A DNA stretch of 64,000 nt from Azolla caroliniana (lineage: Eukaryota > Plantae > Polypodiophyta). The notes beneath the pieces were generated by a model. The model was not told the origin of the DNA, ran no database searches, and was given only the letters and a program-made list of their open reading frames with translations. Position 1 is the first letter of the stretch. Every line of letters begins with the position of its first letter. The DNA is taken from the NCBI GenBank assembly GCA_043228905.1, contig JBHGNT010000007.1, forward strand, positions 7,626,001 to 7,690,000, written 5' to 3'. The translations under genes were made by a program, and so were the position numbers. Positions 1,359 to 63,622 of the stretch are shown in pieces.

Positions 1359-2780
1359 TCTCTCGCTCTGTCTCTCTGTCTCTCTGTCTCTCTGCTGCAG
1401 ACTGGTAATGGGAAGTCTATGGCACTTCTCTCTCTGCGATCTAGGCTCTAGCACCCCAATTTGAGCCCAAGCCGAACCGCAGCTTAACCAGTTCAGTCCA
1501 GTCCAGTCCAGTGACCAGCCCGGCCCGGTTCGGTTCGGTTCAGTTCGGTTCAAGTTTAGAGGTCCGACATGGCCATAGACAAAGTTCGGAAGGTTGTTTC
1601 CCATCCTGTCACTAGGCTTCCTTCCGGCGGCTACGCTGTATAGGGCCCTCGACGCTTTGTTTTGGAGACGATTCTCCTGGTTCAAAGTTGATCAAGCACA
1701 CTTCTAGGATCAACGTATGCGATACCAATTACGAATAGTTAAGATGGTTTCGCCAACGTTAATCTATGTAATCAAACTTTTAGAGCGGTATTTATGTTTG
1801 TTTTATCAGTTGTGATAAAAATAAAAAAACCCTGCCTGGGTTGATAGATTTCCCATGGCAAAATTCTCATATAATAACTCAATTCGTGTTTCCATAGAGC
1901 AATCCTCTTTATTTGTGGTGTTCGCGCTACATCCCTTCGTGGTCTTTCTTACATGACATAGAGCACTTTGGTCAATCCTTATGCAAGATCCCATCATGAA
2001 CATCTACAAATTCAAACTAAACTTTGAGACTAATGTCTAACAAGATCAATAGGAAATTTTATCGGGTTTGCCTTTGAAAGGGCAATGTTATCTTTTTTGA
2101 TCTTTCATATTACGTTAAAATTGGCAATTGTTTTTGGTGATATTCATCATCTAAACTCGTCTCACTTCTATTTTGTACCATGGGAAAAAATGGCATGTTA
2201 ATGTTTTAAAGCCATCGTTAGGAGCAACCTAAATTATAAACATTGAAGAGCTTTTATTCTAAATGTGTCAACAAACCCACAACCCTAACATTACAAGCAC
2301 AAGATTTATTTATTGTTTTGAAACTTTGAGTTCTATTAGTAATTGTAAATGCAAACTACAAAAACAGGAGGACAATGCTTCCATATTGTTCTTATGGGCA
2401 GGAATTTTTGTAAACACTTGAAAAGAACTAATCTGGAAGCTTTCGATAAAATGACGAAAGACACCGTGAAGGCTTTTCCTTGGTTAGCTTGTTCTTCATA
2501 GATTTTGCCTAAATAGTAACCATATAGACATTTTGATATTTAAACAAGAAAACCCAGAGCTTTTTAAAAGCAACAAAACTACCCCTTCCTCAAGTAAGAA
2601 TTACTATGCACCTAATTTTTAGAAATGGTTTCATAGAGCAGGTTTGCAACTTGTCAATTTGAACATCGGAAGTAAAAAGACGAATTAAACTAAACTTGAG
2701 TTTATTGAATCCTAATTAGCCATTATGAGGGTGTATTAATGTGTCTTGTTTGTTTATGAGTTTACAAAATCGAACATCGT

Positions 2781-3176
2781 TGTTGCCTTCTGGCCGAACT
2801 AGCCACAACACAAGTGTTCTTCCCGAGCACTTCTCCAAAGGGGTGGTAAGGTTAGGATGTTAGATCACACGCGTAAGATAAAGATTAATAGCATAGACAG
2901 TAAGGAAATACAGATACAAAGATAAGTGCTCAATGATAACTTGTATTACTTCCGTAAGAAAACATTACATCCCATCATATCCTTTTATAGGCATCCGGCA
3001 AAGTTACAAAACGGTGCCCTTTAGGCAACCGGCTCCGAATTGGTCCGGATCCGGATCGGTACAACTATCCCGGATCCGTCCCTCCGAATCATAATTATAA
3101 TAACTATACTATATATATATCCATATATATCCGGTTCTGCTTTCCCACTTGTCCTTCCGCCTTTGACCGGCCAACA
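2781..3176 (-). repeat. 3' LTR of the Gypsy element (396 bp)
   Basis: Near-identical to 13423-13809: about a dozen substitutions, an 11-bp indel and a TA slippage by eye. TATA-like CTATAAAAG on the minus strand at ~2982-2990. Confidence 0.95.
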
Positions 3177-3178
3177 CA

Positions 3179-3194
3179 TGGCACGCCCGTAGGA
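3179..3194 (+). other. Inverted PBS-like site TGGCACGCCCGTAGGA at the position where the PPT should be
   Basis: Starts 2 nt inside the 3' LTR. Resembles the complement of the plant tRNA-Arg(UCU) 3' end (TGGCACGCCCAGTGGGA, recalled). No purine tract adjoins the LTR on the coding strand. Confidence 0.6.
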
Positions 3195-3269
3195 AAGTGC
3201 CTTGCACTTTGAACCCACACACGGCCTCATTCTTCCTCCAATATATCGAGCAAACTTTGCTCGAAGGTA

Positions 3270-6200
3270 TCAAGTGGTTGGTGCCTCCCCGGTTTCCTGT
3301 TCCGTGCCTGTCTCCCTTCCGATTTCCGGCTGGATTGGTTGTTGCTCTGGTTCATCTGCCTTTGCTTGTTCTTGCTGTACTGGTGCTTCCTCTCCGCTCC
3401 TTCCGGGTTCGTCTTGTTTTTCTTCCATTTCCGGCTCTGATCTATTATCGGTGTCACTTTCACCGGTCTCGACTGGTCGGTTGGCTGCTAACTCTTCCTC
3501 TGCCTTGGCGTTTACTTGCAACTGCTCCTCTTCCGTCCCGGCGTTTGCCTGCAACTGTTCCTTTGTCAACACAGTTGTCCCTTGATTGATCTGGACTGGT
3601 GGCTCCTCCTCGGGTCCTTCTTGTCGGGGTTGTTCGGTGTTGGTTGGTTGTTCCCTAGCCGGTTGCTCCTCGTCACTAATTGTGATGGGCGTTGTCTTAC
3701 CCTCAGCTTCTTCTTGTTGACGGTCCTGCTCGTACTTCTCCAACTCCAACTGAGTTTCGAGTTGTCCGTCATCCAATCTTTCCACCAACCCCCAGATCTC
3801 CCTTAGATGTTCTTCTGCTAAAGCGAAGAAATCCTCGGACAGTTCTTCCCGAATGGTCACAATGCTTTCTTCATCCATCTTGTTAGAACTTGTCACTTGC
3901 CTTCATCCGGTTCTCTGCATCCGCCCGGAGTGTTTGCAGCTCTGCTGCTTGTTGTGACCACTCCTTCCATACCTTCTCAGCACATTCATTGATGTTGGTC
4001 TGAGCTCAGTACCTCCATGCTGACATGATGAGCCGGATCTGGTCCACCCCCAGTTGAGCACGTGAATTGGCCTCTTGCTTTTCCTGTCTCAACCGTACTA
4101 TAATCGCAACCGCGGCCTGGGCTTGGCTTTCATACTCCGCTGCCTTCTTTTCATATGTACTCCTAAGTTTGTTGAGCGCATAGGTGGCCCGTTCCTTCTC
4201 TTCATTCCGGTTCTTGGTTAGCTCCAACTTCTCCCTTGCCGCTGCTTCCAACTCCTTTACTCGCACCACCACTTGGGTTTCCTCTACCGACAATGCTTCC
4301 TTTTTTACATCTAATTCGTCCATTGTCTTGGCAAGATCCAACCGGGTCTCTTTCAGCTGCTCCTTTATCTTCTCCATCTGCCGGTCGAACTCCGCTCCCC
4401 GTTTTTTGTAATCCACCTTGGCTTGCTTGTGCTCTCGATACAACCTGTCAAAATCCTTAGTTTTCTGTTTCAAGCGTCGGTTTACCTCCTTTTGTTGCCG
4501 AAGTTCTTCCTTGAGACGTTCTATTTCTGTCTCCGCATGCCGGCGCAGTCTGTCCTTCTCTTGCTGCAGCTTGTCTTTTTCTTCCCTCAGTCGATCGTTG
4601 TTGGCCTGGCTTTTCCGGAGGCTTTCTTCCATCCTCCGCCTTTCTTCTTCTGCCAACTTCCTTTGTTCTCTTTCCTTCTCTCTCAACGCCTCCTGAGCCC
4701 TCAACTCTTCTCTTAAGGTTGCTATTATTTTCCCAGACTCAGGGCCGGTTTGCAAGGCCTCTCCTTCCATCGGTTCTGGGGTGGCTTCCTTCCTTGTTGT
4801 CCCGACCGGCTCGGTGACGACCTGTGCTTGTTGGCCCGCTGTGGCCGTATTGGCCGCTCTTTCCTTTGCCTTTGTCAGCTCCTCCTGCAACCCCTGGATC
4901 TGCGTCCGGAGCGAGACCAATTCCTGTGTTGTTGTTCGCGTAAGGTATTCCCTATGCCTCTCTTCCTCGTCCAGTTGGTCTGCTACCCCCAACACTTGTT
5001 CTGAAAGCCATCTTAGCCATTGTTGCATTGTGTTGTTCTCTAGTCCCTGGCTTACTCCCTCTGTCGGGGTGCTTTGCGCGCTCCCGCTTGGTGGCTCCGG
5101 TTGTTGCTCTTGTCTTCCCTCCGGCTGCTTTGCGCCTGTTTCCGATTCCAAGACTTGTTCACTTCCCAAGTCCGGGAAGATTGGTTCGCTGGCGACGTCC
5201 GACAACCTCTGATCTAGTGCTGCCTCTTGTTTTGCGGCCCTTGATTCTTCCTGTTCCTCTACCTCCTTGGTTATTGGAGTCGGTCCCTTCGCCCGTTGCT
5301 GAGTGCCGCCAACTGGTGGAGCCGATTCGTTCGCCCGTTGCTCCCGACCCCGCTTTGGTGCGTGTCTTTCCAATGGCTCGGCGGAGTCCTCCTCCTCAGC
5401 CTCCTCCTTCGTGGTGGTTCCCAGACAGAACTTTTGTACAAAGTCCGCTGGTTCTGGTCCTGGCATTCGCACTGTGATTTTTATCGGCTTTTGCACCACC
5501 GGCTCCTCCTCTGCCGGTTCCTGTGCGCGGGTGGTCTTCTTCGCCGATTTCTCTTTTCCTTTCCCCGCTGGTTTTGCTTTTCCCAACTGCTCCGGTTGCC
5601 GTCTGTTGGATGGCCCTTCTTCCAGCTGTTCGTCCTCCTCCTGGGTCCATCTCGAGGTATGCTTCTCCAGGAGCTGCTGGCGTTTCGCAGTCTTCTTTGG
5701 TGTCGTCTCCTGGCGACCCCTTTTCTTTTGCTTGATGGGGAGAATAGGTGGGACCAACACAATCAGCCACTGTGCTATCCCGGCCCATGATTTCTTTCCT
5801 TCTACCAGGTTCCCGATCGCATCTTTCAAACCTTCGGTGATGAAGTGGAGCCAGTCCACCCTCAGTCCTTCATATGCCGCAATCACGAACCCGGCCCGGT
5901 ACTTTGGTATGGCTGGGGGACGAGGGTGTACAAACCCGTATTCCATCATTGCGCGGGCCACTTCCCTGAACAACAGGTTCTGTCCCCCTTGCGTTCGGTA
6001 TGCCTTGCTACTCAGAGAGTACTCCCCGAAGTACTCGAACAAGATCTGGTTGGAGGGGCACTCTATTGATCGCAATCCTCCTGCCTGTAGCCCTGTGAGC
6101 GCCTGCACCGCGCCTTCTGTGATCTCAGATAGGTCAATGGTTGCGGCTGCTTGCTCTGGTTCCGCGTGCGGTGGTGTGTCGGCGATGCGCAGAAGTCCTT

Positions 6201-6447
6201 CCAACCCGTTTTCTATCAGCCACTGTCTTGCTTCCTTTGAGAGCGCCATAGGACCTATGTCTTCCGCGTGGATGTGTTGGTCGGTGTAGAAGCTAAGCTC
6301 TGTGCGTCCGGGTTCTCTTCTGTTTTCTCGCGCTTGCTTCAAAGAAAATTCACGAAATGTGAATACTTCACATGCCTTTGCCTTTTGTAGGTTCAGTCTC
6401 TTCGAGCCGTCGTTTCTTGATTCCCGCGCATGCATATCTCCTGCCAT
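3270..6447 (-). CDS. Extra ORF(s) of the retrotransposon downstream of pol (813 aa + 208 aa; probably one disrupted ~1060-aa ORF with a long coiled coil)
   Basis: ORFs 4006-6447 and 3270-3896 are in the same orientation as pol. The frame continues past the TGA at 4006 (AQTNINECAEKVWKEWSQQAAELQ...) to a 1-nt frameshift near 3885. Glu/Lys/Gln-rich heptad region in the C-terminal half. Confidence 0.7.
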
Positions 6448-8298
6448 AATTAGTATGTCCTGTCCTCGTTGTTCATGGTTGTGCCTTAAATAGCAACCCC
6501 CCCACCTTTTCGCTTATTCAATGGTGGCGCTTCATTAATCTTTTTCAATTAATTGCTGGCGCTCCCACCTTTTCCATTCTCCTTCATCATTGCGTATGTA
6601 TTTCTTTTTCTGTTTATTTTCTTTTCTGTTTTTTATTTTTCTGAAGTTTATTACGTTACTTGTTGGTTGTACCCGGGCGACCCGGATTGGTTACCTCCGG
6701 TGCCGGACCTTCTTCCTGCCGGTTTTCCGAATCTCGTGAGTCCTTGTTCTTTTGAAACGGGTTAGCCGGCATACGTCCTTTGTATGGCTTCAAACGGAAT
6801 CTGTTTGCCCATTTGTCTATGATCTCGCCTGCTAACGGGCCGAGCTGATACGACCCATTGTATTCCTTCGTAATCTAGAACGGTCCGGTCCACCGAAACC
6901 ATAGTTTTCCCGGCATGTTGCCCATTTGGGTCTGGAACAGTAGGACCGGTTTCCCGATTTTGAATTCCTTTTCATTACCTCTCCGATGTCGGTCTACGAA
7001 TGCCTTCCTCCTCCGTTGTTCGAGCTCAAGCTGTAACAAGCTGGTTATTCGGTTTTCCTCCAACTCGCACAATGTTGCCAACCGAATTTTCTCGGACTCC
7101 TTCTCGCTCAGGCGTTCCTTCACCTGGATTCGTAAACTCGGAATTTGAAACTCTACCGGCATCACTGCTTCCAATCCGAATGCCAATCGGAACGGGGTTG
7201 TCCGGATGCTGGTCTTGTATGTTGTCCGGTATGCCCACAGTGCGCTTTGTAGTTTCGTGTCCCAATCTGTCCGATTCTCATTGACAATTTTCCGTAAAAT
7301 GTTCTGCAGGGTCTTGTTGGTCGACTTAGCCATTCCGTTGGCCTGCGGGTAATAAGGTGTGCTTCGTTTGTGCACCACCGCATAGAACGACGTCAAGCTC
7401 TCCACTACTTGCCCGAGGAAATACCCTCCTTGATCACTTATCAACTCGATCGGGCAGCCATATCGGCACCATATGCATTCATACAAAAAATTTGCTGTAG
7501 AAGCGATTGTGTTATCTCTTAATGCCTTTGCTTCTACCCACTTTGTGCAGTAATCGGTGGCCACTATAATGTACCGATTCTCGGTTCTCATTGCCGGGGG
7601 TTTAAATGGACCGACAAAGTCTAGTCCCCATTTTTGAAATGGCTCCAGAGGCAGAACCGGGTGGTGAGGCATTCGGGCCTGCTCCATTGGTTGACCTAGC
7701 CGCTGGCACAGATCGCATTCTTTGCTAGACCTGACGACATCCTTGAGGGTGGTTGGCCACCATAACCCGCTTTGCCATATTTTCCGGGCTGTTGCTTCTC
7801 TGGCATAATGCCCTCCAGCTATACCGTAGTGAGCTTCCCTTAGGATCATCTCCTTTTCGTCACTTCGCACTGTTCGTCGCCAGATACCATCCGCCCCCTT
7901 GTGGTAGAGGGTGTCCCCGACCAGACAGAAGTGCCTGCTTCGGACCGCCACACGCTTCCGCTCATCTCGATCCATGTTCTCAGGAGGTAATCCGGTGCTC
8001 AAGAATTGGTGCATGTCGGTTAGCCACTTGTCCTCGGCTACTGTTGCGTTTGTGGCTGGTTTCGTCGTTATTCGGAACAATTCGGCATCGGGAAATTCGT
8101 CCTACACGCCGTTGCCCACTTCACCGGATTCGAGTCTGCTTAGGTAGTCAGCTACAGCGTGCTGCACTCCGGGTCGGTGGAAGATATCAAATTCGAACTC
8201 CTGTAGTAGCAACGTCCACCGTGCGATCCTACCGGTCAGTGATGCCTTCGATAGTAGGTATAGCAGCGCCGAATGATCTACGTGGAAGGAGAACTTTC

Positions 8299-9203
8299 TG
8301 TTGGGAGACAGGTCCCTCCGGATGGGAAGGGAGAAGAACAGTGCCGATGAACAAACTCGGCCGAGGCCGAAACCGGATGAGGAGTACCCGGTTACGGAGA
8401 GCCGGATGGTGCATGCCTGGTGTGAACCGGATGAGGAGTACCCGGCTACGGAGAGCCGGATGGTGCAGGCCCGGTGTGAACCAGATGAGGAGTACCCGGC
8501 TACGGAGAGCCGGATGGTGCAGGCCCGGTGTGAATCGGATGAGGAGTACCCGGCTACGGAGAGCCGGATGGTGCAGGCCCGGTGTGAACCGGATGAGGAG
8601 TACCCGGCTATGGAGAGCCGGATGGTGCAGGCCCGGTGTGAACCGGATGAGGAGTACCCGGCTACGGAGAGCCGGATGGTGCAGGCCCGGTGTGAACCGG
8701 ATGAGGAGTACCCGGCTATGGAGAGCCGGATGGTGCAGAACCGGTGAGAACCGGAGGAAGAGACATATTCGTAAATATGTTTTTGAGAGCCCATCAAGGC
8801 TATATTTGTAAATAGCCGAAAAGTCATATTAGTATAAATATGACTTAGGGCAAACTTTTAGTAGTTGTTGTCATTTTCTGTTTTGCACGAGATTAGTGTG
8901 CGTAACTGTACAGAGAGAGAGAGAGAGAAAGAGGTTGTTGCCTCTGTTGTAACCGCCGCCTGTGGCGAAGATTAGTGAGCACGAGGTCGGTGCCTCAGTG
9001 AACTCACTGTTGTATATTCCTACATAGTGACAGTTTGCAGCCTATGGGCTGCCGTGGTTTTTCCCCTAGTTTGGGGTTTTCCACGTAAACCTCCTGTGTA
9101 TCCTCTCCTTCTTTGTGTCGCGTTTTATTTCCCGTTTTCTGTGTATCATTCTAAGCTTGGTTGTGGCCGAGCGTTGCGCATAAGGAATGTTGGGTTCCCG
9201 TCA
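8299..9203 (+). mobile_element. Solo LTR (905 bp) inserted into the RNase H of the Gypsy pol
   Basis: Termini TGTTGGGA...TCCCGTCA with 5-bp TSD CTTTC (8294-8298 and 9204-9208). Removing it restores ...HYLLGRKFSFHVDH. Contains an LTR-type CCGTGGTTTTTCCCC...GGGGTTTTCCACGT motif. Orientation is tentative. Confidence 0.88.
8369..8760. repeat. Tandem array of ~7 x 54-bp units inside the solo LTR
   Basis: Unit GAACCGGATGAGGAGTACCCGGCTACGGAGAGCCGGATGGTGCAGGCCCGGTGT, head-to-tail with no spacers. Confidence 0.95.
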
Positions 9204-11539
9204 CTTTCTTCCTAGTAAGTAGTGTCGGTATTTTGTGACGTTGTATACCATGCCTAGGGCTTCCCTCTCGGTTGTGGAATAATTTCGTTCTGCCTTCGAG
9301 AGTTTCCGGCTGACGTAGTATACCGGCCTGTACCATTTTGGCTCAGTCAACTGCATTAAGACGCTTCCAATTGCGATGTTGGACGCATCTACGAAGACAT
9401 GGAAACTCTTTGCCCAATCTAGAGGTTGAACCACCGGGGCTTGTGATAGCATTACCTTCAGTGCTTGGTATGCCTTTTCCTCGGTTTTTGCCCATTGAAA
9501 GGGCACCCGATGTATTGCGGCATGTAGTGGTGTAGCAAAATCCACAAGGTGCCGTATCATCCGGCTGTGCCACCTTATTTGACCTAAGAACTGGCTCAGG
9601 GCTTTTGCGTTGTTTGGTGCTGGTGCCTCAAGGATTGCTCTTACCTTGTCCAGATCCACCACAATCCCTTCTTTGCTAACAACATGTCCTAGTAGGTTGC
9701 CGCTCGCTACTCCAAAGACACACTTGGCTGGGTTCAAGCTCAATCGGTATTCTCTGCACTTCTCTAAGCATAACCGAAGGTGGTCGAGATGTTCTGTTTG
9801 CTGGCTGTATACCGCAAAATCGTCGAGGAACACCTACATAAACCCATGGATGTATTCTCCGAATATCTCCATTATAATCCACTGGAATGTTTGTGGAGCC
9901 GTCTTTAACCCGAACATCATTACTACCGCTACAAATACCCCCCATTCCGTAATGAAGGCCGTCTTTTCCTGGTCCGCCAGGCGCATCCGAATTTGGTTGT
10001 AGCCACTGAATCCGTCTAGGAAGCTGTAGACCTCGTGTCCGGCGATCGCATCCAATACCCTGTCCGTGAATGGTAATGGAAATACGTCGGTTACCGTGGC
10101 TGCGTTCAACTTCCTGTAATCCACGCACACCCGGATCTTGCCGTTTTTCTTTGGAACGAACACTATCGGGCTTAACCAGGTTGCCTGCTTCACTAGTCGG
10201 ATAAACCCGACCCTGATCAATTTGTCAATTTCTTCTTTGACCTTTGCCACATAATTTGGGTTCATGCGATACCTTCGTTGTGCTACTGGTTTAGCATCTG
10301 TACTGAGGTGAATTTGGTGTTGATACAACTGGGGGTCCAGCCCTTGCATGTCTTCGTACGACCATGCGAATACATCCCGAAAGTCTGTTAACAATGCGAC
10401 CATTGCCTTCTTCTCCTTGTCCGACAATTCTTTTGCCACTTTTACCGGCCTTGGTTTGCCCATCGTTCTGAGGTCCACCTCCTCCAACTGGGACACTTCC
10501 ACTCTCTGTGATATCGTTATTTCCCTCTCGAGTGACTCCTGTGCTTGGCGCAATTCTCGGATTGCTGCTTGATCCGGCTCAACCGGTTCCGGGGTAGTGA
10601 TATACGACCCGATAGCTGCAGTGATGTCGACTTCAAAGAGTGGGACGATCTTTGGGTGTTCCTCCATATAACGATCGATCTCCTCGTCTGGCAATCCTTC
10701 CAGCATATTGATACTCTCTGCGTATAGTGGTGGTTCTTCTTTACTAGTGACTGCTCGTTGCTGTGTGGCCACCCGTACCTTCGTCTTCCCACGCCGGAAT
10801 GTGATGATATTCTTTTGCCAATTTTGTTTGATATGTGCCGTTCGTAGCCATGGCCGTCCCAACAGTAGAGGGTATGATCCTTGAACGTTTAGTTGCAGTA
10901 CCACGGCCAATATGCGGAATACGTGGCCCCCGATTGTGACCTCTAGGTCTCGAATAAGCCCGGTCGGTCGGACCGAACTGGTATCTGCCATGCGTAACCA
11001 GAAGGGACACGACTCCCATTCCTGGATGCCCAGGTTGTCGCATGTTCGTCGACTGATGACGTTCACTCTTGATCCTCCGTCGATGATCGTTCCGGTGATT
11101 TCCTTGCCCTTCACAAGTATTGTGATTGCCGGGCTGCTTGTGTCCACCACGGTCGGTCCTTCTTCCGGGTTGGAGAAAAATGCCGGTGCTGGCGCTGGCT
11201 TTGGTTTGGCGACGGTTGCCTGTAGATTCGCCGTGAATCGTGGTACCAACTGGTGCAATCGTGCTAATGGTAGCACGATCTGACAATCTTGTAGTGCTTG
11301 CCACGTCGGGTTGTCCTCCGGTTGTGTGATTGTTTCCTCAAGCTGCGTATTCTGGTTTGTTATCTCCGCCATGTTCTGTTCGTTGGCTTTTTTAATCCAT
11401 TTCGATGCCTGCTTTCGGATTTCTTCCTGGGCTTCCCATTCTGCCGCCTTCCCTTTCGACCGGGTTGTAACCTGTTGAACGTCTGTCACCTCGACCATGA
11501 CCATATTGACCGCCAGCTGCTTTTCATTTGTTTTGATTG

Positions 11540-13370
11540 GGCATTGGTTACTGTAATGCCCTTCCTTTCGGTAGTAGTAACAATATACTTTGTGGTTGGT
11601 ACTTGATTCTCCTTTGCTTCTGGTTTGGGAGGTGGGGATTACCCGGTGGTTGTCTTCTGTTTTCCGGTTATCTGGTGCTGATGCTGGGTTGTTATCCCTT
11701 GCTGCCTCTCGACGCTCTTCTCAACGGAAAAACCCTCGCTTCTGATTCCGCTAGAAATTACGGTTCCCTTGACGTCTATTGTCTCTACGTCGGTCATATT
11801 CCGGGAAGTCATCTCGTTCATACCGGTCCCTGCGATAGTCATCGCGATCATATTCGTCACGTTGCTGATCAGTGTATCTATCACCACGCTCGCATTGGTC
11901 GCGGTCGTCTCTCCGGAATCGGTCTTCTTCCGGGTCCTGATTGTTTCGTGGTTCTATGTGTCGGACCGGTGCCGCCTATCGATTGAGCAAGTTGTACTCA
12001 CATCGGTCCGTCGTATGTGCCCGAGAGTGGCATATCATGCACTGTGTGCGCATAGTGCAGTCGACCGTTGAGTAGCCCGAATTGAGACACGTTGTGCATT
12101 GTAGAGATTGCTGGAACCTCAAATCTTCTTCCTTCGGTAGGGCTTGGTGTAGCATTCCTAGTGACATGAATGAACTGTTTTTGTCCATCTCTAGTACTCG
12201 GTCAATAACCTGGTCCACCGTGCTGGTACGGAAGTTGAGGACTCCGCACATTGTTCTAAGTGGTTCCCTTAATGCAGCCAAAAATACTGCTTTTGCTTCG
12301 TCCTCAGGAGGTGCTCTTGTCAACTGGCTGTGCAAGGTCTGGAACCTGATTATAAACTGTGGCACAGTTTCGTGCGCCTCCTGCCGGGTGGTATAAAATT
12401 GCCCGACTAATTCCCTCTGTTCTACTTGTCCATGGAACAGCCAAAGGAATTTTGCCTTCAGGGCGTCGAATGTGGCAAAACTGCCGGGCAAATGTTTTGC
12501 ATGCCAATGTGCGGCCGGTCCTTCCAGTGTCATGCCGAATTCGGCGACTTTGGACTGCTCTGCCTCGGGCTCCGTCAATCTCTGAGAGACATGGTTGGCT
12601 TCCCATGTCTGGAGAAATGCGTACACATGAGCCTCCGCGTCGGGATCATCCCGGTATTTTGGGTAAGGATACAACATGGTGTCCTCCTGTTGTTCTGGTG
12701 GCGTGCGATTCCTTGCGTCCTCCGCTTCTTCCGCGGGTGGTGTCGGTATACGCTCTTTTGCTTCTTCCGCGGGTGGTGTTGGTATTTGATCCTTCGCTTC
12801 CTCCGCGGGTGGTGTCGGTATACGATCCTTCGCTTCTTCCGTGGGTGGTGTTGGTATACGATCCTTCACTTCCTCCACGGGTGGTGTCGATACACGATCC
12901 TTCGCTTCCTCCGTGGGTGGTGTCGATATACGATTAGTCTCTCTTGGCGATTGCCGGTCCCCGAACTCCAAGGTTATTTCTTCCGTTGGTTCCAGTGTTG
13001 ATGAGCCGTCCGACCCGTCTTCCTCCGGATCGTACGGTGTGTCGTGATTGCTTTTATACGGTGACGCAACGCTCTCTTCGCTATCCGAATCCGACTCTAG
13101 GGTTGCGAATGCTCCTGCGTCTCCGTCGCCACCGGCAAGCGCTTGTAGTATTGATTCTGCTTCTTGCAGACTAGTCAGGCTACTGCCTTCGTCGGAGAAT
13201 TGCTGCCTCCGGAACTGCAATGCTTCTTCTGCGACTATCCGAAGTGTTCTGGAAAAGGACTGATCCTGCCGGATTTCCTTGGCAGCTTGCTGCAAGGCTT
13301 CCTGTCGTTGTTGTCGTTCGGCGAATCGTCTTCCTCGTTTGGTAATGTGGTTGTTGTTCGGTCTAGACAT
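11540..13370 (-). pseudogene. Gypsy gag with zinc knuckles
   Basis: Gag core LEGPAAHW...QEAHETVPQFIIRF. CCHC-like motifs CTTCLNSGYSTVDC, CMICHSRAHTTDRC and CYYYRKEGHYSNQC. In-frame stop at 11976. The start is approximate (MSRPNNNH). Confidence 0.85.
12715..12933. repeat. 36-bp coding tandem repeat (~6 x RIPTPPAEEAKD) in the gag N-terminal region
   Basis: Directly visible in both DNA and translation. Confidence 0.9.
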
Positions 13371-13405
13371 CCATCCCCCGGTTGTTCTCTGCACTCCGTA
13401 GGAAT

Positions 13406-13416
13406 TGTGGTCGCCA
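13406..13416 (-). other. Primer-binding site TGGCGACCACA (tRNA-Arg(UCG)-type)
   Basis: Lies 6 nt downstream of the 5' LTR on the coding strand. Complementary to ...TGTGGTCGCCA, the recalled 3' end of plant tRNA-Arg(UCG). Confidence 0.75.
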
Positions 13417-13422
13417 AAATAG

Positions 13423-13809
13423 TGTTGCCTTCTAGCCGGACTAGCCACAACATAGGTGTTCTTCCCGAACACTTCTCCAAAGGGGTGGTAAGGTTAGGAT
13501 GTTAGATCACACGCGTAAGATAAAGATTAATAACATAGACGGTAAGGAAATACAGATACAAAGATAAGTGCTCAATGATAACTTGTATGAAAACATTACA
13601 TCCCATCGTATCCTTTTATAGGCATCCGGCAAAGTTACAAAACGGTGCCCTTTAGGAAACCGGCTCCGAATCGGTCCGAATCCGGATCGGTACAACTATC
13701 CCGGATCCGTCCCTCCGAATCATAATTATAATAACTATACTATATATATATATCCATATATATCCGGTTCAGCTTTCCCACTTGTCCTTCCGCCTTTGAC
13801 CGGCCAACA
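13423..13809 (-). repeat. 5' LTR of the Gypsy element (387 bp)
   Basis: Matches 2781-3176, is flanked by the TSD and is adjacent to the PBS. Confidence 0.95.
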
Positions 13810-14076
13810 ATCGTAATTTTAGAAACCTATGGTTTGCACTCAACAAAGGAGAAACACCTATGTTTTTCGGCCAACATATATGATCTAACCTCCCAGGTTT
13901 GAGTTTGGTTCACTAGTTAGGGCCAATGAGAGATAAATAGATAGATTATATTATTGTCTTTGGAGGTCAAATATAACCTATGAGACAAAAAATATTACAT
14001 TTCACGTGATATGTGTGAAAGTGAGTAGGGACTCTCTATGTTCAAGAACTTTACCAATGAATGTTACAATCGAGAG

Positions 14077-17959: not shown

Positions 17960-20900
17960 CTATCTTGCATCATCATCGGGTTGCCAGAGTTGTTTTCTTG
18001 CAAAAAGGATTTTCTCATCATCACTCGAAATGTCATCCCGCTCTGCTTTCACAACTTTTGACCACGCATCCCAGTGAAGCGCAGTTAGATGCATGCTAAT
18101 CTGATCTATCACTTGACCTTTGTCTCTAATTATCACAAAGCCTCGAGGTCTCAAAAGCCTATCCATCTCAAGAAGAAGATCTTCCATGCCACTACAGCTC
18201 GGGTTATCGATGTCTGTAAAAAGATTCCAAGCATGTAGAAGATCGTATGTCCTTGGGTATGTTGAGAAAGCTTGACACCTGTAGATACAAAGTTTTTGAG
18301 TCCGTTTATACTATTTAGAGTTTAGGGTTTAAAGGTTTAGAATTTGGGATCCAAAATTTAGGCATTAGATACTGCGAAGGAAATTTTTATGAGTTCATTT
18401 ATTATTATCATTTATAATTTGGTGTTTATATATCGAGGGTGTGTGTGTGTAATAATGGTCAAATGTAAAAGCATTTGGGGGGATAACGATTTTTACACTC
18501 ACCAGTCATGTAGAGATCCAATCAAGCCACGGTCATATATCACCTTCAATGTGTTGCTGCCAAAGCTCGGAACAACATTCATCACCCAAACTGGCTTGTC
18601 TTTCAAGGCAGCGGCAAAGCCCCCGAAATGAGCCTTCATATCCATTACATTCCGAAATGTGTTTTCTTCAATTTCTGAGCTCAACTGTTCCCAGTAGAAA
18701 TCCACTCTTGCACGCCAAACCATCTAACATGTTAACATATAACATCGTTTTAGCTTTCCAAATAACAAGTTAGAAGTTGATAATAGTTAGTTGATAATCC
18801 TACTTTGTCTTTCTGGAAATGGCCATTGCTGACACCCAATTCTTTCAGGCGTGGTGAAATCGAAGTCAGACGGCTTGGCCAAGGTTGTAAAGGATGAGCA
18901 TCACCTAGATGAAGACCAAGAAAAAAATCATGCATAAACCAACTCTTAGGACATAAAATGAAAATGATTTACTTGTAATAGAGCCTGTTTCTTCATCTTT
19001 ACTTACCCTCTGGTAATGGTGAAATGCATGCCTGCATTGGTACATCCCAGGAAGCATCAGGATCATCATTTTTATCACACAATGGAGGATCAGTACCTTC
19101 CACCCTATCTTCATAACACTGATTTGTCAAAGGCTTCATCCAAATAACAGTTTGGCCTTCTTTAGCTGCCACAGACCAACACATTCTTTTCACAAGATCT
19201 GACATATCATTCCATATTTTCACATCTTCTGGGTCATCTCTATAAGCAGGAGGCGAGGACCAAGCAAAAAATCCACCTGGCCTAAGCATTCTATCTACCT
19301 CCAAAAGAAGTATGCCATCACGTTGTAGCCAATCAATCCGACAACGAGAACAATGTGCAAGATCAAAAGACTTGCTTGGAAAAGGCAGCCTTTTAGTCCC
19401 TAGTACACCGAGAGTAGAAGGAATTCCCCTCTCTAAGGCAAACTGTATTTGATTCTCATGTACATCATTGGGAGCAATTGACATCGCCATAATCTCCAAA
19501 GGTAACAAATAAGCACCAAAGCTTGCAACCCCACATCCCACATCAAGGACAGTTCTAAGTTTTCCACGGTTGCTCAAGTTGTCATCTGGGTACTTTAGCA
19601 TCTATACATTGGTTAGAAAGAATGGATTAGGTGCAAAGTATGGTGGGTTAAGAAAAAATCTTGCTAGAACTTGAATCTAGATAAATATTAGTTGGTCTAG
19701 AGTATGATACTAACCTTAGCAAGTGATGCAATATACTTTTCAGCACCATCATGGAAGTGGGTTCCTCCACCTGGAAAGTTCACTTTATCACCATTGATGA
19801 CCATCCAATGTTGATCTGATTTCTCCATGGCAAGGAACGTATGAGGAACATTAGATTGCCACACTTCATCTCTGCTTGCAGGCCATGGTATTGACACCTG
19901 CCGTCGAAAAAGAAGAAAACTGTTACCAAAAGTAAAGCTGTTGCCTTTTCATACAGTTTTGGGATCATATAGTGCAACTGTGAAGGCTTTAGTTTGATTG
20001 AGAAATGGAGACTAATTAATCATATTAAGTCAATGCCCACGCAATGCACACAACCTTGACAAGCCAATATTATGGTAAGACCACGTACATTTAAATGCCT
20101 TTAAGATTCTAAATCACGGTTGCCCATACGCAACGATGCAAAGCCTTGAATAGGCCTCGTCTTTTTCATACGTATGAAATTATACATGTCCTCACATAAT
20201 AGACTACCAAGATCAGACATAAGACCATTTGCATCTGGATGGCTTTAAGACACTTAATCACATTTATTTAAGAGAAATAATGAAAAGCCTCAATTATCTC
20301 CCACCTTTTTTGTGCAATTGAATTTATAGATGTCCTCAACTAATAGACTACCAAGAATAGAGAAATGCAAATAAATGCATTGCATAACCTTCCTATCACA
20401 ATACATAATAATCCAACTAGTATACCTGAGAATATATTTTTCAAGCAGCGTAAAATTTGCATTTCATATTGACAGATAGCATAACCTTATCAAGTTTTCA
20501 GAAAGTAGTAATATTAGCATTCATGTCATACACTTGATAAAAATACATGAAAAACACTGAAATAGCCAGAGTTTTTCTATTTCTAGAAATGCCCCTGACT
20601 TTTCGTTATTTCTCCAAATATTCTTGGTCAATCCCAACATAAAATTGCTCAATATCACATATAGTCTAAAAAAATGAGATAAACTGACTATACAATCGCC
20701 CAAATAGCATGTGCATGTGAGAAAAACGAAAATTGACTATAACTACTGAAATAGGACATATACTTCAGAAAAACACAATTGGCATTAGGAGAAATAACAA
20801 AATATTTGGGGCATGCAGGGAAATAAAGAAAATTTTGGGTGTATTTGAGAGTTTTCACATAAAAGTAATCAGCCAAGATCTGTCCTGCATATGTTAAGCA

Positions 20901-28629: not shown

Positions 28630-31600
28630 TGTAAAGAATCGGATATGATTCTTGTGTAGCGGAAGAGATGTGTGTTATGTGTATGTGTGAGAAGAAGGAG
28701 ATGAGAAGAGAAAACACAAGATAGATTAGATAGGATGGGAAATAGAATACTCAAGAAGAAGGTGTATATTCACAAGTAGAATAGCAAATACAAAATGTAG
28801 CATTACAAGGAGTCACAACTGACTTAGTATCAAGTACGAGAAGGGTGCTTTATATAAGGTCACCCTCTCTCTTCATTAACTCACTACAACAACTACTCTC
28901 TCTTGGGGAATGTGAAGACTCATAGTCATGGGGAATATCGAACTCATTAGTTATGTGTCGTAGTTATGATTCTATGACACATAGTTAATGTGTAGAGAGT
29001 AGTGGTGTGGCTCTTGACCTTTGAGTGATCATAGATTCTCAAAGGGTGTGTTCACACATTGCACTAGGTTGAGCTTGATTCTCAACACACCCCCTCAAGC
29101 TCAACTTGGGTCGGTTCCTTTTGGTTGATGTCCGCTTCGGTTGGTATCAAGTTCGGACGATCTCCGGTGTCCGCTTCGGCTCATACCCGGTTCGGACGGT
29201 ATCCGGTTCTCTCTTGTACTCCCCCTCAAGCTTGGCATGTCAGGGATCGTCAATACAAGGTTTGACATGAATTGCCGAAGCGTGTCGACTCCTAGGGCCT
29301 TGGTGAAGATGTCGATCGTCTGAAGATTCGTGTTGATGTGTTGAAGGTTGACATCTCCGGCCTGTACGCGCTCTCGAATGAAATGATAGTGCACTTCAAT
29401 ATGCTTTGTGCATGCGTGGAACACCGGGTTCCGAGTCCAAAAAAATATTGCTCATGTTGTCGCAGTAAAGGAGAGTCGAATCCTTGATGAGAACGCCTAG
29501 ATCCTTCAAAATCCTCTTGAGCCATACGGCTTCACATGTAGCCACGACTGCTCCCCTTTATTCGGCCTCTGTGCTCGAAAGTGCAACGGTAGGCTACTTC
29601 TTACTACTCCAAGATATTGCTCCGCTGTTGAGAGAGAAAACAAATCCGGAGGTTGATCATTGATCGGCCTTGTAGTCGGCCCAGTCGGCATCTGTGTACC
29701 CTTCAAGTCGAATTGGTGTGGCCGATTTGTAGAGAATTCCGTGATCCATTGTGTCGCTCATGTATCGTAATACTCGCTTAGCACAATCGAAATGGATATC
29801 TTGCAGAGTTTGCATGAATTGGCTAAGGAGTCTGACTGGATAGTTAAGGTCAGGTCCAATGATCGTGAGATAGATGAGGCTCCCGATCAGTTGACAATAT
29901 TGAGTCGGCTTGCACTCGTCTGTGTCAGAATCAACATCTATTTTGAGGTTTTGATCGAGAGGGGTTGCCACAGATTTGCACTCAGCCATCCCGAACTTGT
30001 TTAACAAGTTGAGGATGTAATGCCATTGAGAGATCATAATGTCGGTCGAAATCCGAATTACTTCGATTCCAAGGAAGTAATGGAGCTCCTTCATGTCCAT
30101 CAAGTTCTTCGAGTTCCAATTCGATGAAGATATTGTGTTATCTTTGAGTGCCAAGCACGCGGTGCTTGCTTAAGGCCATAAAGTGGCTTCTTCAGTCAGT
30201 AGACTGCTTTTGGATGGATGTTCGATTCGAAGCCGGGTGGTTGTACCATGTACACCTCCTCTTCTAATTCGCCTTGAAGAAAGGCGTTCTTTACGTCCAT
30301 TTGATGGAGGTGCCACACTTTCGCCGCTGCAAGTGCAATCAATCATCATCTTTACCACAGGGGCAAAGGTCTCTTCATAGTCGACTCCATGTGTTTGTGC
30401 GTATCCTTTCGCTACGAGTCGGGCTTTGTAGCAGTTGACGGAACCGTCTGCATTATACTTCACCTTGTAAATCCATCTGCAACCAATTGCCTTCTTGTGC
30501 GGTGAGTGGGGAACGAGATCCCATGTCTCGTTCTTGCATTGTGCCCGCATCTCCTTGTTCATTGCTTCGAACCATCATGGATCCTTGACTACTTCCGAAA
30601 AACTTTCCGGTTCTCGAACTGTCGCCACCTTCATCATAAAGGCATAGTGGTATGCCATATAATCGTCGTAGCCGAATCGACTATCAGGATTCTTCTCACG
30701 GGTGGAACGATGGAGTTTTTCGTTTGTCGTGGCAATGGCTTTCTTTATGCTAGGTGTCCTCATGATAGGTACATCAAAGCCATTGAACTCACTATGGAGG
30801 GAGTGAGTTGATTCGTTGCCGTTGAATTGATCGTCCTCATACTCCGGCATTTTCACCTTGCCTTTGTCCATCTTCAGACTAGACCGAGATGTGCTTTGGT
30901 CGCTCGGGGGCTCTTGTGACCCACTAAGCTTTATCGTAATCGGACTTTCTTCAAACATGTGTTCGAGTCGATCTCCATCTTCTATCTCTTGTTCGGCGGA
31001 TTCCGGGTTGTGCGGGATCAAACTTGAAGTTGTCTCTAGTGCGTACCAGGATGTTGACTCGTCGAAAACGACATCTCCACTTACTCTAACTTTTCGAGCA
31101 GATGGGTTATAGCACTTGTACCATTTTTCTCCAATGAGTATCCTACGAGGATACATTTCTCTGACTTTGAATCGAGCTTTTGTCGCTTCTCGTCGGGGAT
31201 GTGCACGTATGCAATGGAGCCGAATATCCGAACATGTGATAGATCGGGCTTCTTTCCGAAAAACTTCCCGTGCGGGGTAACCTCATGCACTTCGGATGTC
31301 ATGCACTGATTCATGAGGTAGACGACAATATTCGCTGCTTCGGTCCAATATGACTTCAACAAGTGCTTTTCGTTCATCATGGCCGGTGCTACTTCGAGGA
31401 TGTGCCAATTCTTTTGTTCGGCTACTCCATTCTGTTGTGGCGTATGTCGACACGAAAAATCTCGTTGAATTCCTTCTTTTTGTAGAAAAGCCGAAAATTT
31501 GTCGGAGAAGTACTCCTTTCCTCCATCTGACCGAAGACATCGTACATGTCAGCCCGTGGCTTTCTCGACTTCATTCTTAAATTTTTGGAAGTGTTCGAAC

Positions 31601-33897
31601 ACTTCACTCTTTTGACACATGGGGTAGATCCAGGTGTGTTTGGAGAAGTCATCAATGAAGGCCACATAGTATCGGCATCCGCTGAATGTAGCCATTTGAG
31701 TTGGTCCCCATACATCAGAATGAATGATGTCGAGTACGTCTTTGCTCACGTTCCTCTCCTTCGGGAACGGGTGTCAATGTTGTTTGCCGAATTGGCAAGC
31801 TGCACACACGCCTTCAATCTCCTTCTCTTTGAAGGTCGGGAGCCCGATGATGACTCCTTTGATTGCATCGCCTTGAGTTTATTGAGATTGACGTGGCCAA
31901 TCCACTTGTGCCATAGCTCTATGTCGGAATCGGCTTTCGTGCCTTTTGCAAACATGGTCGATTTCATCTCATGCGAGTCGAGAATGAACATTCAGCCCTC
32001 TCTTCGCCCGCGAGTGATGAGTCAACCCTCTTTCTCGATGAAGCAACCACCTTGATTAAATCGAATTCGCATCCCTTACTCAACAATTTGGCCAACAGAG
32101 ACCAAATTCTTCGTAATGGTGGGTACATGCAAGACATTCTTTTGGTTACCTTCTTTGCCGAATGAGACATTGCCGATGTGTCAAATCGGATGCGTAGTGT
32201 CGTCTCCGGTTTCGACATAGCCGGCTCGGTCCGGCTCTCGAAGTTCTCGGAACCATTCTTGATGAGACGTCATATGGTTCGATGCACCAGAGTCGACAAA
32301 CCATACATATTTTGGACGAGAGGCACTAGTTGAAGTAGAAGCCGACATAGAATTTGCTCTATGTCTCATCACGAACAATCCACCATGATCATCATAGTCG
32401 GAGTTGGTTGCGTAATTGGTGAGTTATCGGCTAGTGGAAGCCGACTTGCGCATCTTCTTTTGGCACTCTTCTTCATGGTGGCCGAGTTTGTCGCAATATC
32501 CGTATTCGATCGAGTTTTGTTGGTTCGGACCGGAATGGAAGCTCCCCCTTCCTCCGAAGGTTCCTTGATGGCTTCCGTCTTGTTGCTGAAATTGGGAGTT
32601 GTTTTCGTGAGTCGAACCTCGTCCGCTTCGTCCTTGACCGAATCGGCCTCTTGCTCGGCCGCGTCCTCTTCCTCCGTTCGAATGCATGTAGAGCATGTGG
32701 CCTTCTGAGGCATTGCTCCTTGTTTGAACATGGTTTTCTTCGACCAAAACCATGGATTGAAGATCGAAGACAAAGGGAGGATTCTCCCTTGCTAGTACGG
32801 CGGTCCGCCGAACCATGGTGCAAGTCCACCGAGGCATATTTGCACCATCTCATCATCCTCCACGTTGATGCTTATCGAGTCGAGCGAGTCACAAAGCTCC
32901 TTGATCTTCAGGTGTAGGTCGTGATGGACATATCCCTTTGTTGGATGTTGTTCGACTCTTGGCGGAGTTGAAGCTTTCTCGGGGTTGTGTTGGCGACGAA
33001 AATCTTTCGTTGATTTTCCCACACTTCCTTCGGCGTCTTAGATTTTCGAATGTAGCCGAACATGTGGTCGTGAACACATGTCGCCAAGCAATACATTACT
33101 CGACTCATCGCTTGCTCCCATGCTGAGTAGTCGGTGTCCTTCGAGTTGGGTCAAATTTCTTGTGCTCCTTTGATGTAACTCCAATATCCTTGACCGACAA
33201 GGTATTGGTGCATCTTGTACTCCTAAGATGCAACGTTGTTTTGATCCAACTTCTCGTTAGGGAGGGCTCCCCATTTGAGTATTCATTGTCGATGAAGCTT
33301 TCTTTCTTCTTTTCCTTCTCTCTCAAACACGAGCTATGTAGTCCCACTACGATAATGATGAGCCAGTTCTTCTTGAACGTCGGCATAAAACACAACATAC
33401 GCGGATCGGCTTGATCGAGCTACCAAATTGCTCTGATACCATGTAAAGAATCGGATATGATTCTTGTGTAGAGGAAGAGATGTGTGTTATGTGTATGTGT
33501 GAGTGAGAGGAAGGAGATGAGAAGAGAAAACACAAGATAGATTAGATAGGATGGAAAATAGAATACTCAAGAAGGTGTATTTTCACAAGTAGAACAACTA
33601 CAAAATGTAGCATTACAAGGAGTCACAACTGACTTAGTATAACATAGGAGAAGGGTGCTTTATTAAGGTCACCCTCTCTCTTCATTAACTCACCACAACA
33701 ACTACTCTCTCTTGGGGAATGTGAAGACTCATAGTTATGGGGAATATGGAACTCATTAGTTATGTGTCATAGAATATGATTCTATGACACATAGTTAATG
33801 TGTAGAGAGTAGTGGTGTGACTCTTGACCTTTGAGTGATAATAGATTCTCAAAGGGTGTGTTCACACGTTGCACTAGGTTGAGTTTGATTCTCAACA
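28630..33897 (-). mobile_element. Full-length, degenerate Ty1/Copia LTR retrotransposon
   Basis: LTRs 28630-29087 and 33442-33897 with perfect TSD GTCAA (28625-28629 and 33898-33902). PBS TGGTATCAGAGC (33430-33441) and PPT GAGGGGGTG next to the 3' LTR. Gag, protease WFVDSGASNHMT, integrase [19 protein letters not shown] and RNase H HIEVHYHFIRE, with many frameshifts. Confidence 0.96.
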
Positions 33898-42640: not shown

Positions 42641-42849
42641 TTAGACTTTAGGTTTAAGTGCACTTCGCGGTCCTCGTAATAGGACTTAAGAGCCGAAACC
42701 ACATATGTGGGCACAAAAACATAGTTTATTGTTAACATTTTTTTCGTGTATAAACTATTCATGACGCGAACATACATGGTTGCACCTCAGGGAGCCGCCA
42801 TGAAATCGATATAGAGATTAGGGAAAGGCATTCATTTGTCACCCCCATG

Positions 42850-63106: not shown

Positions 63107-63622
63107 TTAGAGCTGGCCAGAATCAGCAATAACCACTGGTTTGGAGGTCTTACCGGATTGAGAGCCCACAGCCTCAATTGCCTTCACAACGTTTAGGCCC
63201 TCCACAACGCTTCCAAACACAACATGCTTACCATCGAGCCATGGTGTGGCAACCGTGCAGAGGAAAAACTGGGAGCCATTGGTATTTGGCCCAGCATTGG
63301 CCATGGACAAAACTCCTGGTCCTGTGTGCTTTCGTGAGAAATTCTCATCAGGGAACTTGGCGCCATAGATGGATTCTCCACCAGTTCCATCGCCACGGGT
63401 GAAGTCTCCTCCCTGGCACATGAAGTTCGGGATAACGCGGTGGAATTTGGAGCCCTTGAAGTGGAGTGGTTTGCCAGACTTCCCGACGCCTTTCTCTCCG
63501 GTGCACAGTGCCCGGAAATTCTCAGCTGTCTTAGGGGTGGTATCAGCATAGAGCTCCATAACAATTCTCCCAGCTGGTGCACCACCAATAGTCATATCGA
63601 AGAAGACCTTAGGGTTTGCCAT
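63107..63622 (-). CDS. Cytosolic single-domain cyclophilin (peptidyl-prolyl cis-trans isomerase, ROC1/CYP18-19-like)
   Basis: Intact 171-aa ORF: [14 protein letters not shown]...[16 protein letters not shown]...[16 protein letters not shown]...[16 protein letters not shown]...[11 protein letters not shown] splice acceptor CTGTAG|G lies 1 nt before the ATG, indicating a 5' UTR intron. Confidence 0.97.

Follow-up and report, generated by a model that had tools for sequence, protein, structure and literature searches.

The window analysed here, a stretch of 64,000 nucleotides from the fern Azolla caroliniana (assembly GCA_043228905.1, contig JBHGNT010000007.1, positions 7,626,001 to 7,690,000), contains at 2781-13809 a Gypsy retroelement that is encoded on the minus strand and carries, in place of a polypurine tract (PPT), a second tRNA-complementary site in opposed orientation (Table 1). 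The element is bordered by long terminal repeats (LTRs) with TG...CA ends that agree at 373 of 385 aligned positions (Jukes-Cantor distance 0.032), and by a 5-bp target site duplication (TSD), ATCGT, on both sides. Intact LTR ends and a perfect TSD had been described in an earlier note on this DNA, which had also placed gag-pol and the TATA box of the LTR on the minus strand; the order Gag, protease (PR), reverse transcriptase (RT), RNase H and integrase on that strand and the TATA-like word CTATAAAAGG on the minus strand of the LTR agree with this. Two extra open reading frames (ORFs) follow in sense. They belong to no Pfam family and have nine environmental homologues; the first measures 1047-1135 aa in full relatives, with a conserved N-terminal region and a coiled-coil-like C terminus. 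The extra ORF(s) after pol are lineage-specific. The copy in the window is decayed, with pol split by stops and RNase H interrupted by a 905-bp insertion that holds seven 54-bp tandem repeats. In RNA runs, 49 and 3 reads aligned and mostly continued into unlike sequence.

The ordinary primer-binding site (PBS), TGGCGACCACA, lies on the minus strand at 13416-13406 and starts 6 nt inside the 5' LTR, where it had been located before. At the other end, the strand opposite to the genes shows TGGCACGCCC two bases inside the 3' LTR, and TGGCACGCCCGTAGGA starts there, on the plus strand, at 3179. The 10-mer of this opposed site occurs once in the window against 0.01 expected from 100 shuffles. Its presence 2 nt from the 3' LTR without a purine tract is as the earlier note had stated; the length of 10-16 nt given there has to be extended to about 40 nt, made up of 17 nt against the 3' end of tRNA-Arg(UCU), a hairpin and 10 nt against the T arm. 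No purine tract adjoins the 3' LTR, and the closest pure run of at least 6 purines has 10 nt (3230-3239). A nearby run had been noted and does exist, but it ends 53 nt from the LTR and not about 45 nt away at 3223-3238. As it is not conserved, it does not represent a displaced PPT. Elsewhere in the window, a Copia element (28630-33897; TSD GTCAA, PBS TGGTATCAGAGC) does possess an ordinary purine tract, which lies 2 nt from its 3' LTR, so the absence of a PPT is not a genome-wide trait. ARAGORN detected no tRNA gene in the window, and Rfam gave no match with E up to 5 in 2700-3500. Two changes in the site, A3191 and T3210, are private to the window copy, the family having G and C.

Logan contigs of three public DNA runs with three organism labels were aligned to 2700-3700. 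The bin 3176-3209 was the deepest of 30 in all three runs (205,186; 310,135; 100,291), the unique flanks having depths of 41, 24 and 10; run depth is no copy number, and one of the runs (X1) is possibly the window's own sample. G at 3191 accounts for >99% of the depth and C at 3210 for 94-99%, and these majority letters indicate that the window shows a decayed version of a longer tRNA-like motif. A metagenome scan with the LTR end and a 16-nt family word, which fixed the first 16 nt of the matches and allowed a spacer of 1-3 nt, gave at least 123 matches in at least 121 loci. Two of the 123 (L006, L061) were chance matches on long contigs without hairpin or element ORFs and were dropped before counting. 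Among the matches listed, to which the following counts refer, 121 of 121 plant-type cases have a spacer of 2 nt, as does the PPT in the Copia control; a fixed spacing across the family, which the earlier note had named as a point that would speak for its model, is thereby supported. Conservation was computed on 97 distinct sequences that extend 90 nt inwards. It persists at the unselected positions 17-40, with a majority fraction of 0.5-0.98, which drops to 0.3-0.7 beyond position 40 and mostly to 0.3-0.5 beyond 42. CCCAC follows the hairpin in 68/97 sequences as compared with 0/97 in a control stretch, and purine runs of at least 10 within 78 nt occur in 3 of the 97, so that the sister copies lack a PPT as well.

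Element ORFs were present on the inner side in 46 of 121 loci, and 86 of 86 ORF matches oppose the strand of the site. This set includes L004 and L068, with integrases of 74-75% identity; L068, like the more distant relative L123 described below, also shows the Gypsy order gag-PR-RT-RNase H-integrase. Six loci have gag across a single LTR, as in collapsed assemblies, and at L064 the outer gag is on the other strand. Three further 3' junctions that had not been picked by the pattern all contain the site, with one substitution in the first 16 nt. Scans of viral contigs gave no matches to the window's version of the site or to integrase relatives, and a looser site pattern found only two unrelated phage repeats there.

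Both sites are also found in short elements (L009, L048, L016, L022, L035, L059) that have no gag-pol matches and keep a 2-nt spacer at each end; in L009 and L048, which have a period of 2.3-2.5 kb, none of the window's ORFs is matched. These are probably non-autonomous members, and retention of both sites in contigs devoid of gag-pol is what would be expected if both were needed in cis. In L037 (688-1889), an imperfect 1.2-kb inverted repeat sets two 3'-type sites in a back-to-back arrangement across about 550 bp.

A relic or a chance arrangement could be imagined, in which a head-to-head rearrangement or mis-orientation left a second PBS and the displaced purine run is the PPT; the decay of the window copy and the 10-nt run near its LTR would suit this. 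The perfect TSD does not, the run is not shared by relatives, and the site is common to subfamilies that have unalignable LTRs, integrases down to 56% identity and compensatory changes. We regard this origin as highly improbable and as effectively refuted by the run depth, the family conservation and L123. Reversing the genomic RNA, so that the opposed site becomes the main PBS, was also considered and is less likely: the promoter word and the ORFs point in the opposite direction, and it is the site at the other end that shows the AT-rich spacer characteristic of non-chromovirus PBSs. A PPT is missing in that orientation, too.

Positions 19-29 of the site fold as a hairpin in which the stems GTGC/GCAC, GGAC/GTCC, GTAC/GTAC and GGGC/GCCC recur, and compensatory changes occur between subfamilies. 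Pairs 20-28 and 21-27 are of the Watson-Crick type in 88 of the 97 sequences each and pair 17-30 in 78; none of 2000 column shuffles, which ignore kinship, reached these values. Pairs 19-29 and 22-26 vary little and were reached by 8 and 237 of 2000 shuffles. A GGCAC...GTGCC stem at 3180-3201, suggested in the earlier note, cannot be upheld as a conserved structure, since it needs the GTGC/GCAC type, which other subfamilies replace; the covarying hairpin is that at 3195-3208.

A candidate partner for the site is provided by L002, in which ARAGORN recognises a 76-nt tRNA-Arg(TCT) ending in CCA, the first base of which directly adjoins internal family sequence. The contig ends one base past this tRNA (1190-1265), which looks like an unremoved primer copied into DNA; we infer that it is a reverse-transcribed host tRNA. 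The predicted pairing comprises 11 perfect pairs, a bulge, up to 6 further pairs, the looped-out hairpin and 10-11 pairs with the T arm, the predicted partner being the last 28 bases of the tRNA, of which 27 are mimicked. The match of the 3' site to the end of tRNA-Arg(UCU), put forward in the earlier note, is supported by this pairing. Duplex energies of -50.7 to -53.5 kcal/mol are predicted for three sisters and of -42.2 kcal/mol for the window copy; when the unselected part was shuffled, 0-1 of 300 shuffles matched the three sisters, and 0-2 of 300 was the range with the window copy included. A pattern made of the two outer segments of the site found one viral-contig locus, which ARAGORN called tRNA-Arg(TCT). 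Pairing of the 3' site breaks at the boundary of tRNA nucleotides 58 and 59, the classical end of an 18-nt PBS. Conservation persists at positions 32-35, which have no partner in the local fold but lie opposite the T loop; the largest recurrent change among the T-loop-facing bases keeps a wobble pair with the tRNA, and some subfamilies that lack the base opposite A58 still keep 7-8 pairs to nucleotides 49-56. No conserved acceptor-stem partner of the 3' site was found among the 97 sequences. Thus, neither a PPT in sister copies nor an unconserved motif nor the want of a matching tRNA, the three sequence-level findings that the earlier note had named as speaking against its idea, was encountered.

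The 5' PBS does not share this constancy. Its word is TGGCGACCAC in the window, L013, L028, L031, L053, L056, L018 and L070, and TGGCACGCCC in L004, L021, L032, L040 and the short elements; both words are present in L018 and L070, where the bases downstream of them are nearly identical, and the spacers vary from 2 to 8 nt. Because the 5' word switches and the 3' site remains constant, the latter does not mirror the PBS of its own element and does not serve minus-strand self-priming in the window's subfamily, for which such priming by the sense copy of the 3' site was ruled out with a match of only 4 nt. The eleventh position of the 5' PBS is G in the family and A in the window copy (13406 T>C), and C at 13406 makes up 97-99% of the depth in the public DNA runs. 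The tRNA end that the earlier note had assigned to this PBS fits the private A and not the family letter, and tRNA-Arg(UCG) is a putative partner of the 5' PBS in the window copy. Only two phage tRNA-Asp genes were found for tRNAs ending in the TGGCGACCACG word among 113 loci scanned; in human tRNAs this word is labelled R or W (PMC4724089). A cognate tRNA is demonstrated for the 5' PBS of the L032 type only, which matches the L002 tRNA-Arg(TCT) over 13 nt. In 7 of the 9 loci examined, the genuine 5' PBS is followed at position 30-34 by GAAC, in most of them after a predicted hairpin, and this repeats the layout of the 3' site on a strand that a tRNA has to bind.

The most distant evidence comes from a protein scan of prokaryote genome contigs by integrase, in which 5 of 398 candidates were confirmed. 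L123 is a complete element with 1.65-kb LTRs, an integrase 56% and an RT-RNase H 61% identical, and was found by integrase alone, unselected for the site. Its 3' LTR has an opposed 18-nt site at a distance of 2 nt that is identical to the anti-tRNA sequence at 14 of 18 positions, without the one-base deletion seen in the window; behind it come an 8-bp hairpin of unrelated sequence and AACCC. L123 has no PPT. It uses yet another, third word as its 5' PBS and lacks a clean TSD, and its intact pol frame of 2444 aa extends about 1000 aa past integrase without a Pfam match. None of the other four confirmed loci reveals its junctions, as they are too short or too distant. L123 occupies about 1-22,500 of G001:C10, i.e. 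about 22 kb of plant-type LTR retroelement DNA beside bacterial genes in a contig of a bacterial metagenome-assembled genome; the GC content rises from about 0.42 to 0.6 along this contig, which is most likely a chimeric assembly. A quick tree was computed from 66 integrase rows without named lineage references; the smallest clade in it with the window, L004, L068 and L123 has 33 rows and an SH-aLRT support of 97. Two Adiantum nelumboides proteins fall inside this clade.

In view of the observed position, orientation and conservation of the site, its complementarity and the covariation of its hairpin, it is likely that the 3' site took over the job of the PPT in fixing the end of U3, if the three priming models discussed here are taken together. 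The model we propose, on which our judgement is evenly balanced, is that host tRNA-Arg(UCU) primes the plus strand on minus-strand DNA, as the complementarity suggests. A tRNA would prime the minus strand at the ordinary 5' PBS, and synthesis would pass the 3' site. RNase H would clear the genomic RNA, and the exposed minus-strand DNA could then fold the small hairpin. A second tRNA would dock by about 17 bp of its acceptor strand, with one bulge, and about 10 bp of its T arm, which would put its 3' end 2 nt from the LTR, where the 3' end of a PPT would be. RT would extend this tRNA, RNase H would later remove it and integrase would trim the 2-nt extension. More speculatively, the hairpin junction 17 bp behind the primer end may shield the tRNA from RNase H until extension.

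Several points weigh against this proposal. A tRNA on DNA is an RNA/DNA hybrid and hence belongs to the substrate class of RNase H, the motifs of which look intact in the lineage, and in HIV-1 RNase H and nucleocapsid protein suppress non-PPT RNA primers (PMC2665208). Pairing with a tRNA and the same letters acting on the other strand are inseparable by sequence alone. The L002 tRNA comes from one contig with a coverage of about 2, its host origin being presumed, and the 119 plant-type loci stem from 15 assemblies with adjacent accession numbers, probably from one campaign. The T-arm part of the L123 site is weak, the duplex of this site with the L002 tRNA does not exceed shuffles (178 of 300), and no tRNA ending like the L123 site was found in the loci scanned. 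For L032, the GAAC behind the 5' PBS brought no gain in the predicted duplex, which 90 of 300 shuffles equalled. Pair 17-30 shows 6 TG against 6 CA, and C-to-T decay on both strands blurs the polarity of wobble pairs.

Two further adverse observations favour a primer in cis, which we consider possible but doubtful. Here, the element's own RNA would form a tRNA-like structure of T arm, acceptor strand and CCA, be protected from RNase H by its fold, be cut after CCA by the activity that otherwise takes off the tRNA primer, and start the plus strand as a substitute for the PPT. In 7 of 7 sequences folded with RNA parameters, the sense RNA indeed has a more stable fold than the opposite strand, and the L013 group inserts a base that lengthens the local stem and would bulge in the tRNA duplex. 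The hairpin sits between the equivalents of A58 and G59, where T loops tolerate bulges, and the usual logic of an element-encoded primer would be kept without any RNA invasion. However, a conserved acceptor-stem partner is lacking, the A58 equivalent is lost in some subfamilies, and L123 keeps the layout with little T stem. The layout of PBS, hairpin and GAAC is also found at true 5' PBSs, and mimicry of 27 of 28 tRNA bases is presumably more than a cleavage signal should need. The host tRNA is favoured on account of the conservation of the T-loop-facing bases, the retained wobble, the loss of the base opposite A58, the missing acceptor stem in cis and the GAAC behind 5' PBSs.

An antisense transcript of the 3' LTR could make the site a true PBS; a tRNA would prime on that RNA, and the short DNA product would be transferred to the minus-strand DNA. 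This route, which we think improbable, avoids an RNase H-sensitive tRNA/DNA hybrid, and split PBS designs are known on RNA templates (PMC5371799). It would need an antisense start at the outer end of the LTR to copy the full LTR; the TATA-like words of the LTRs are mainly sense (9/11 as against 4/11 antisense), and the extra ORFs are in sense. Also unlikely is a functional site that is not a primer, the plus strand starting otherwise and the site serving in tRNA recruiting, packaging, dimerisation or end-processing. In the subfamilies with the same word at both ends, the sense 3' site can pair with the 5' PBS and could circularise the RNA. In the window's subfamily and in L013, L053 and L056, however, the 5' PBS word shares only 4 nt and the 3' site is kept nonetheless; a conserved alternative primer is lacking, and the distance from the end of CCA to the LTR is exactly 2 nt. 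Returning to the host tRNA as the primer, we propose in general terms that a land-plant Gypsy clade, ferns included and with integrases down to 56% identity, gave up the PPT and has both strands primed by host tRNAs, the second bound to single-stranded minus-strand DNA by way of a structured three-way junction; this may hold or fail about equally.

By its gene order, its direct LTRs with TG...CA and TSD and its PBS behind the 5' LTR the element belongs to Ty3/Gypsy. The usual PPT before the 3' LTR is missing and is not the classifying feature. A chromodomain as in chromoviruses was detected by Pfam neither in the window piece nor in the 2444-aa ORF of L123, and the additional archaeal-type RNase H that defines Tat elements (TatI-III, Ogre, Retand; PMC6317226) is absent from both, the search having matched RVT_3 in a positive control at 40980-41618 of the window. 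With Tat/Ogre/Retand the lineage shares tRNA-Arg PBS words and the 5-bp TSD (PMC6317226). Athila resembles it in having no chromodomain or extra RNase H, a 5-bp TSD, a length of about 10-14 kb, an AT-rich spacer before the 5' PBS and an extra ORF 3' of pol, but differs by a tRNA-Asp/Asn PBS and a PPT-3' LTR junction that is conserved in 97% of Brassicaceae elements (PMC6317226; 10.64898/2026.03.20.713144). Neither that type of PBS nor a Pfam match to Athila ORF1 is present in the window element. Phygy and Selgy have a 4-bp TSD and an interior filled by the polyprotein; here, the TSD has 5 bp and about 3.4 kb with extra ORFs follow pol. The element thus behaves as a non-chromovirus Gypsy, though it lacks the defining features of Tat, Phygy and Selgy and the Athila type of PBS.

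The closest mechanistic parallels are Ty1 and Ty3 of Saccharomyces cerevisiae, in which the minus strand is tRNA-primed from a split PBS and the primer end is fixed beside U3; the PBS of Ty1 is split by a small internal loop, and that of Ty3 pairs with acceptor stem and T arm (PMC5371799). There, however, a purine tract encoded by the element primes the plus strand, and the genomic RNA carries the two segments of the PBS (PMC5371799), whereas in the window's lineage the PPT is absent and a split anti-tRNA site on the opposite strand is in its place. Self-priming Tf1 and Tcn1 are likewise a lineage-wide departure from standard priming, but alter the minus-strand primer and keep the PPT, while the lineage described here alters the plus-strand primer (PMC10085805, PMC6317226). 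No report of an opposed PBS at the PPT position was found, with subscription journals and Repbase outside the search. The extra T-arm pairing of the site recalls the primer activation signal of HIV-1, which pairs additionally with the T arm of the tRNA and acts at the minus-strand PBS on RNA. CCA-ended tRNA mimics in replication are known from the Mauriceville plasmid and the 3' tRNA-like structures of plant viruses, but there they are placed at the RNA 3' end and act as ends of the template, not as internal primers.

Plus-strand priming from a PPT is treated as general for retroviruses and LTR retrotransposons, and it is in minus-strand priming that variants are known, namely the half tRNA, self-priming and the split PBS. 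With either leading mechanism, an abundant lineage devoid of a PPT would be a natural test of primer choice by RT and of sparing by RNase H. If its RT does extend a structured RNA that is docked on DNA, this enzyme would offer a new tool for biochemistry. Where annotation relies on PBS and PPT to assign an orientation, elements of this clade will be oriented wrongly or scored too low, and one PBS primer by itself would give amplification over entire elements.

Table 1. Features of the Gypsy element and its borders (positions in the window)
Feature	Positions	Strand	Remarks
TSD ATCGT (left)	2776..2780		
3' LTR	2781..3176	-	396 bp; TATA-like word ~2983-2989
Spacer, site to LTR	3177..3178		2 nt
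Opposed tRNA site, segment 1	3179..3195	+	PPT position; complement of last 18 nt of tRNA-Arg(UCU) less one base
Small hairpin	3195..3208		4-bp stem, 3-nt loop, one more pair across a bulged A
Opposed tRNA site, segment 2	3209..3218	+	complement of T-stem 5' strand and T loop (tRNA nt 49-58)
Purine run	3230..3239	-	10 nt, 53 nt from LTR; not conserved
Extra ORF 2	3270..3902	-	210 aa stop to stop, acidic, sense; no Pfam match
Extra ORF 1	4006..6513	-	835 aa stop to stop, sense; no Pfam match
Integrase	6875..8101	-	zinc-binding and core domains; no chromodomain match
Nested insertion	8299..9203		905 bp, TG...CA ends, TSD GAAAG; solo-LTR-like; inside RNase H
Protease, reverse transcriptase, first part of RNase H	9201..11720	-	split by a stop
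gag region	11976..13372	-	Retrotrans_gag; 36-bp tandem repeats at 12682-12969; stop-to-stop frame continues to 13493
Hairpin-forming stretch behind 5' PBS	13389..13401	-	in family majority; then GAAC
5' PBS	13406..13416	-	6 nt from LTR
5' LTR	13423..13809	-	387 bp; TATA-like word ~13614-13620
TSD ATCGT (right)	13810..13814		

In the remainder of the window, an intronless cyclophilin gene lies on the minus strand at 63107-63622; its nearest named counterparts are those of Ceratopteris (89%), Diphasiastrum (88%) and Sphagnum (87%), which points to a seed-free land plant as the host. At 38034-45630 and 54720-56865 there are a decayed, Tat-like Gypsy element that has an additional RNase H, the decayed pol of a second Gypsy element and, as judged by eye, hAT-transposase-like ORFs. 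Exons of a plant methyltransferase-like gene, likewise judged by eye, are on the plus strand at 17960-19601.

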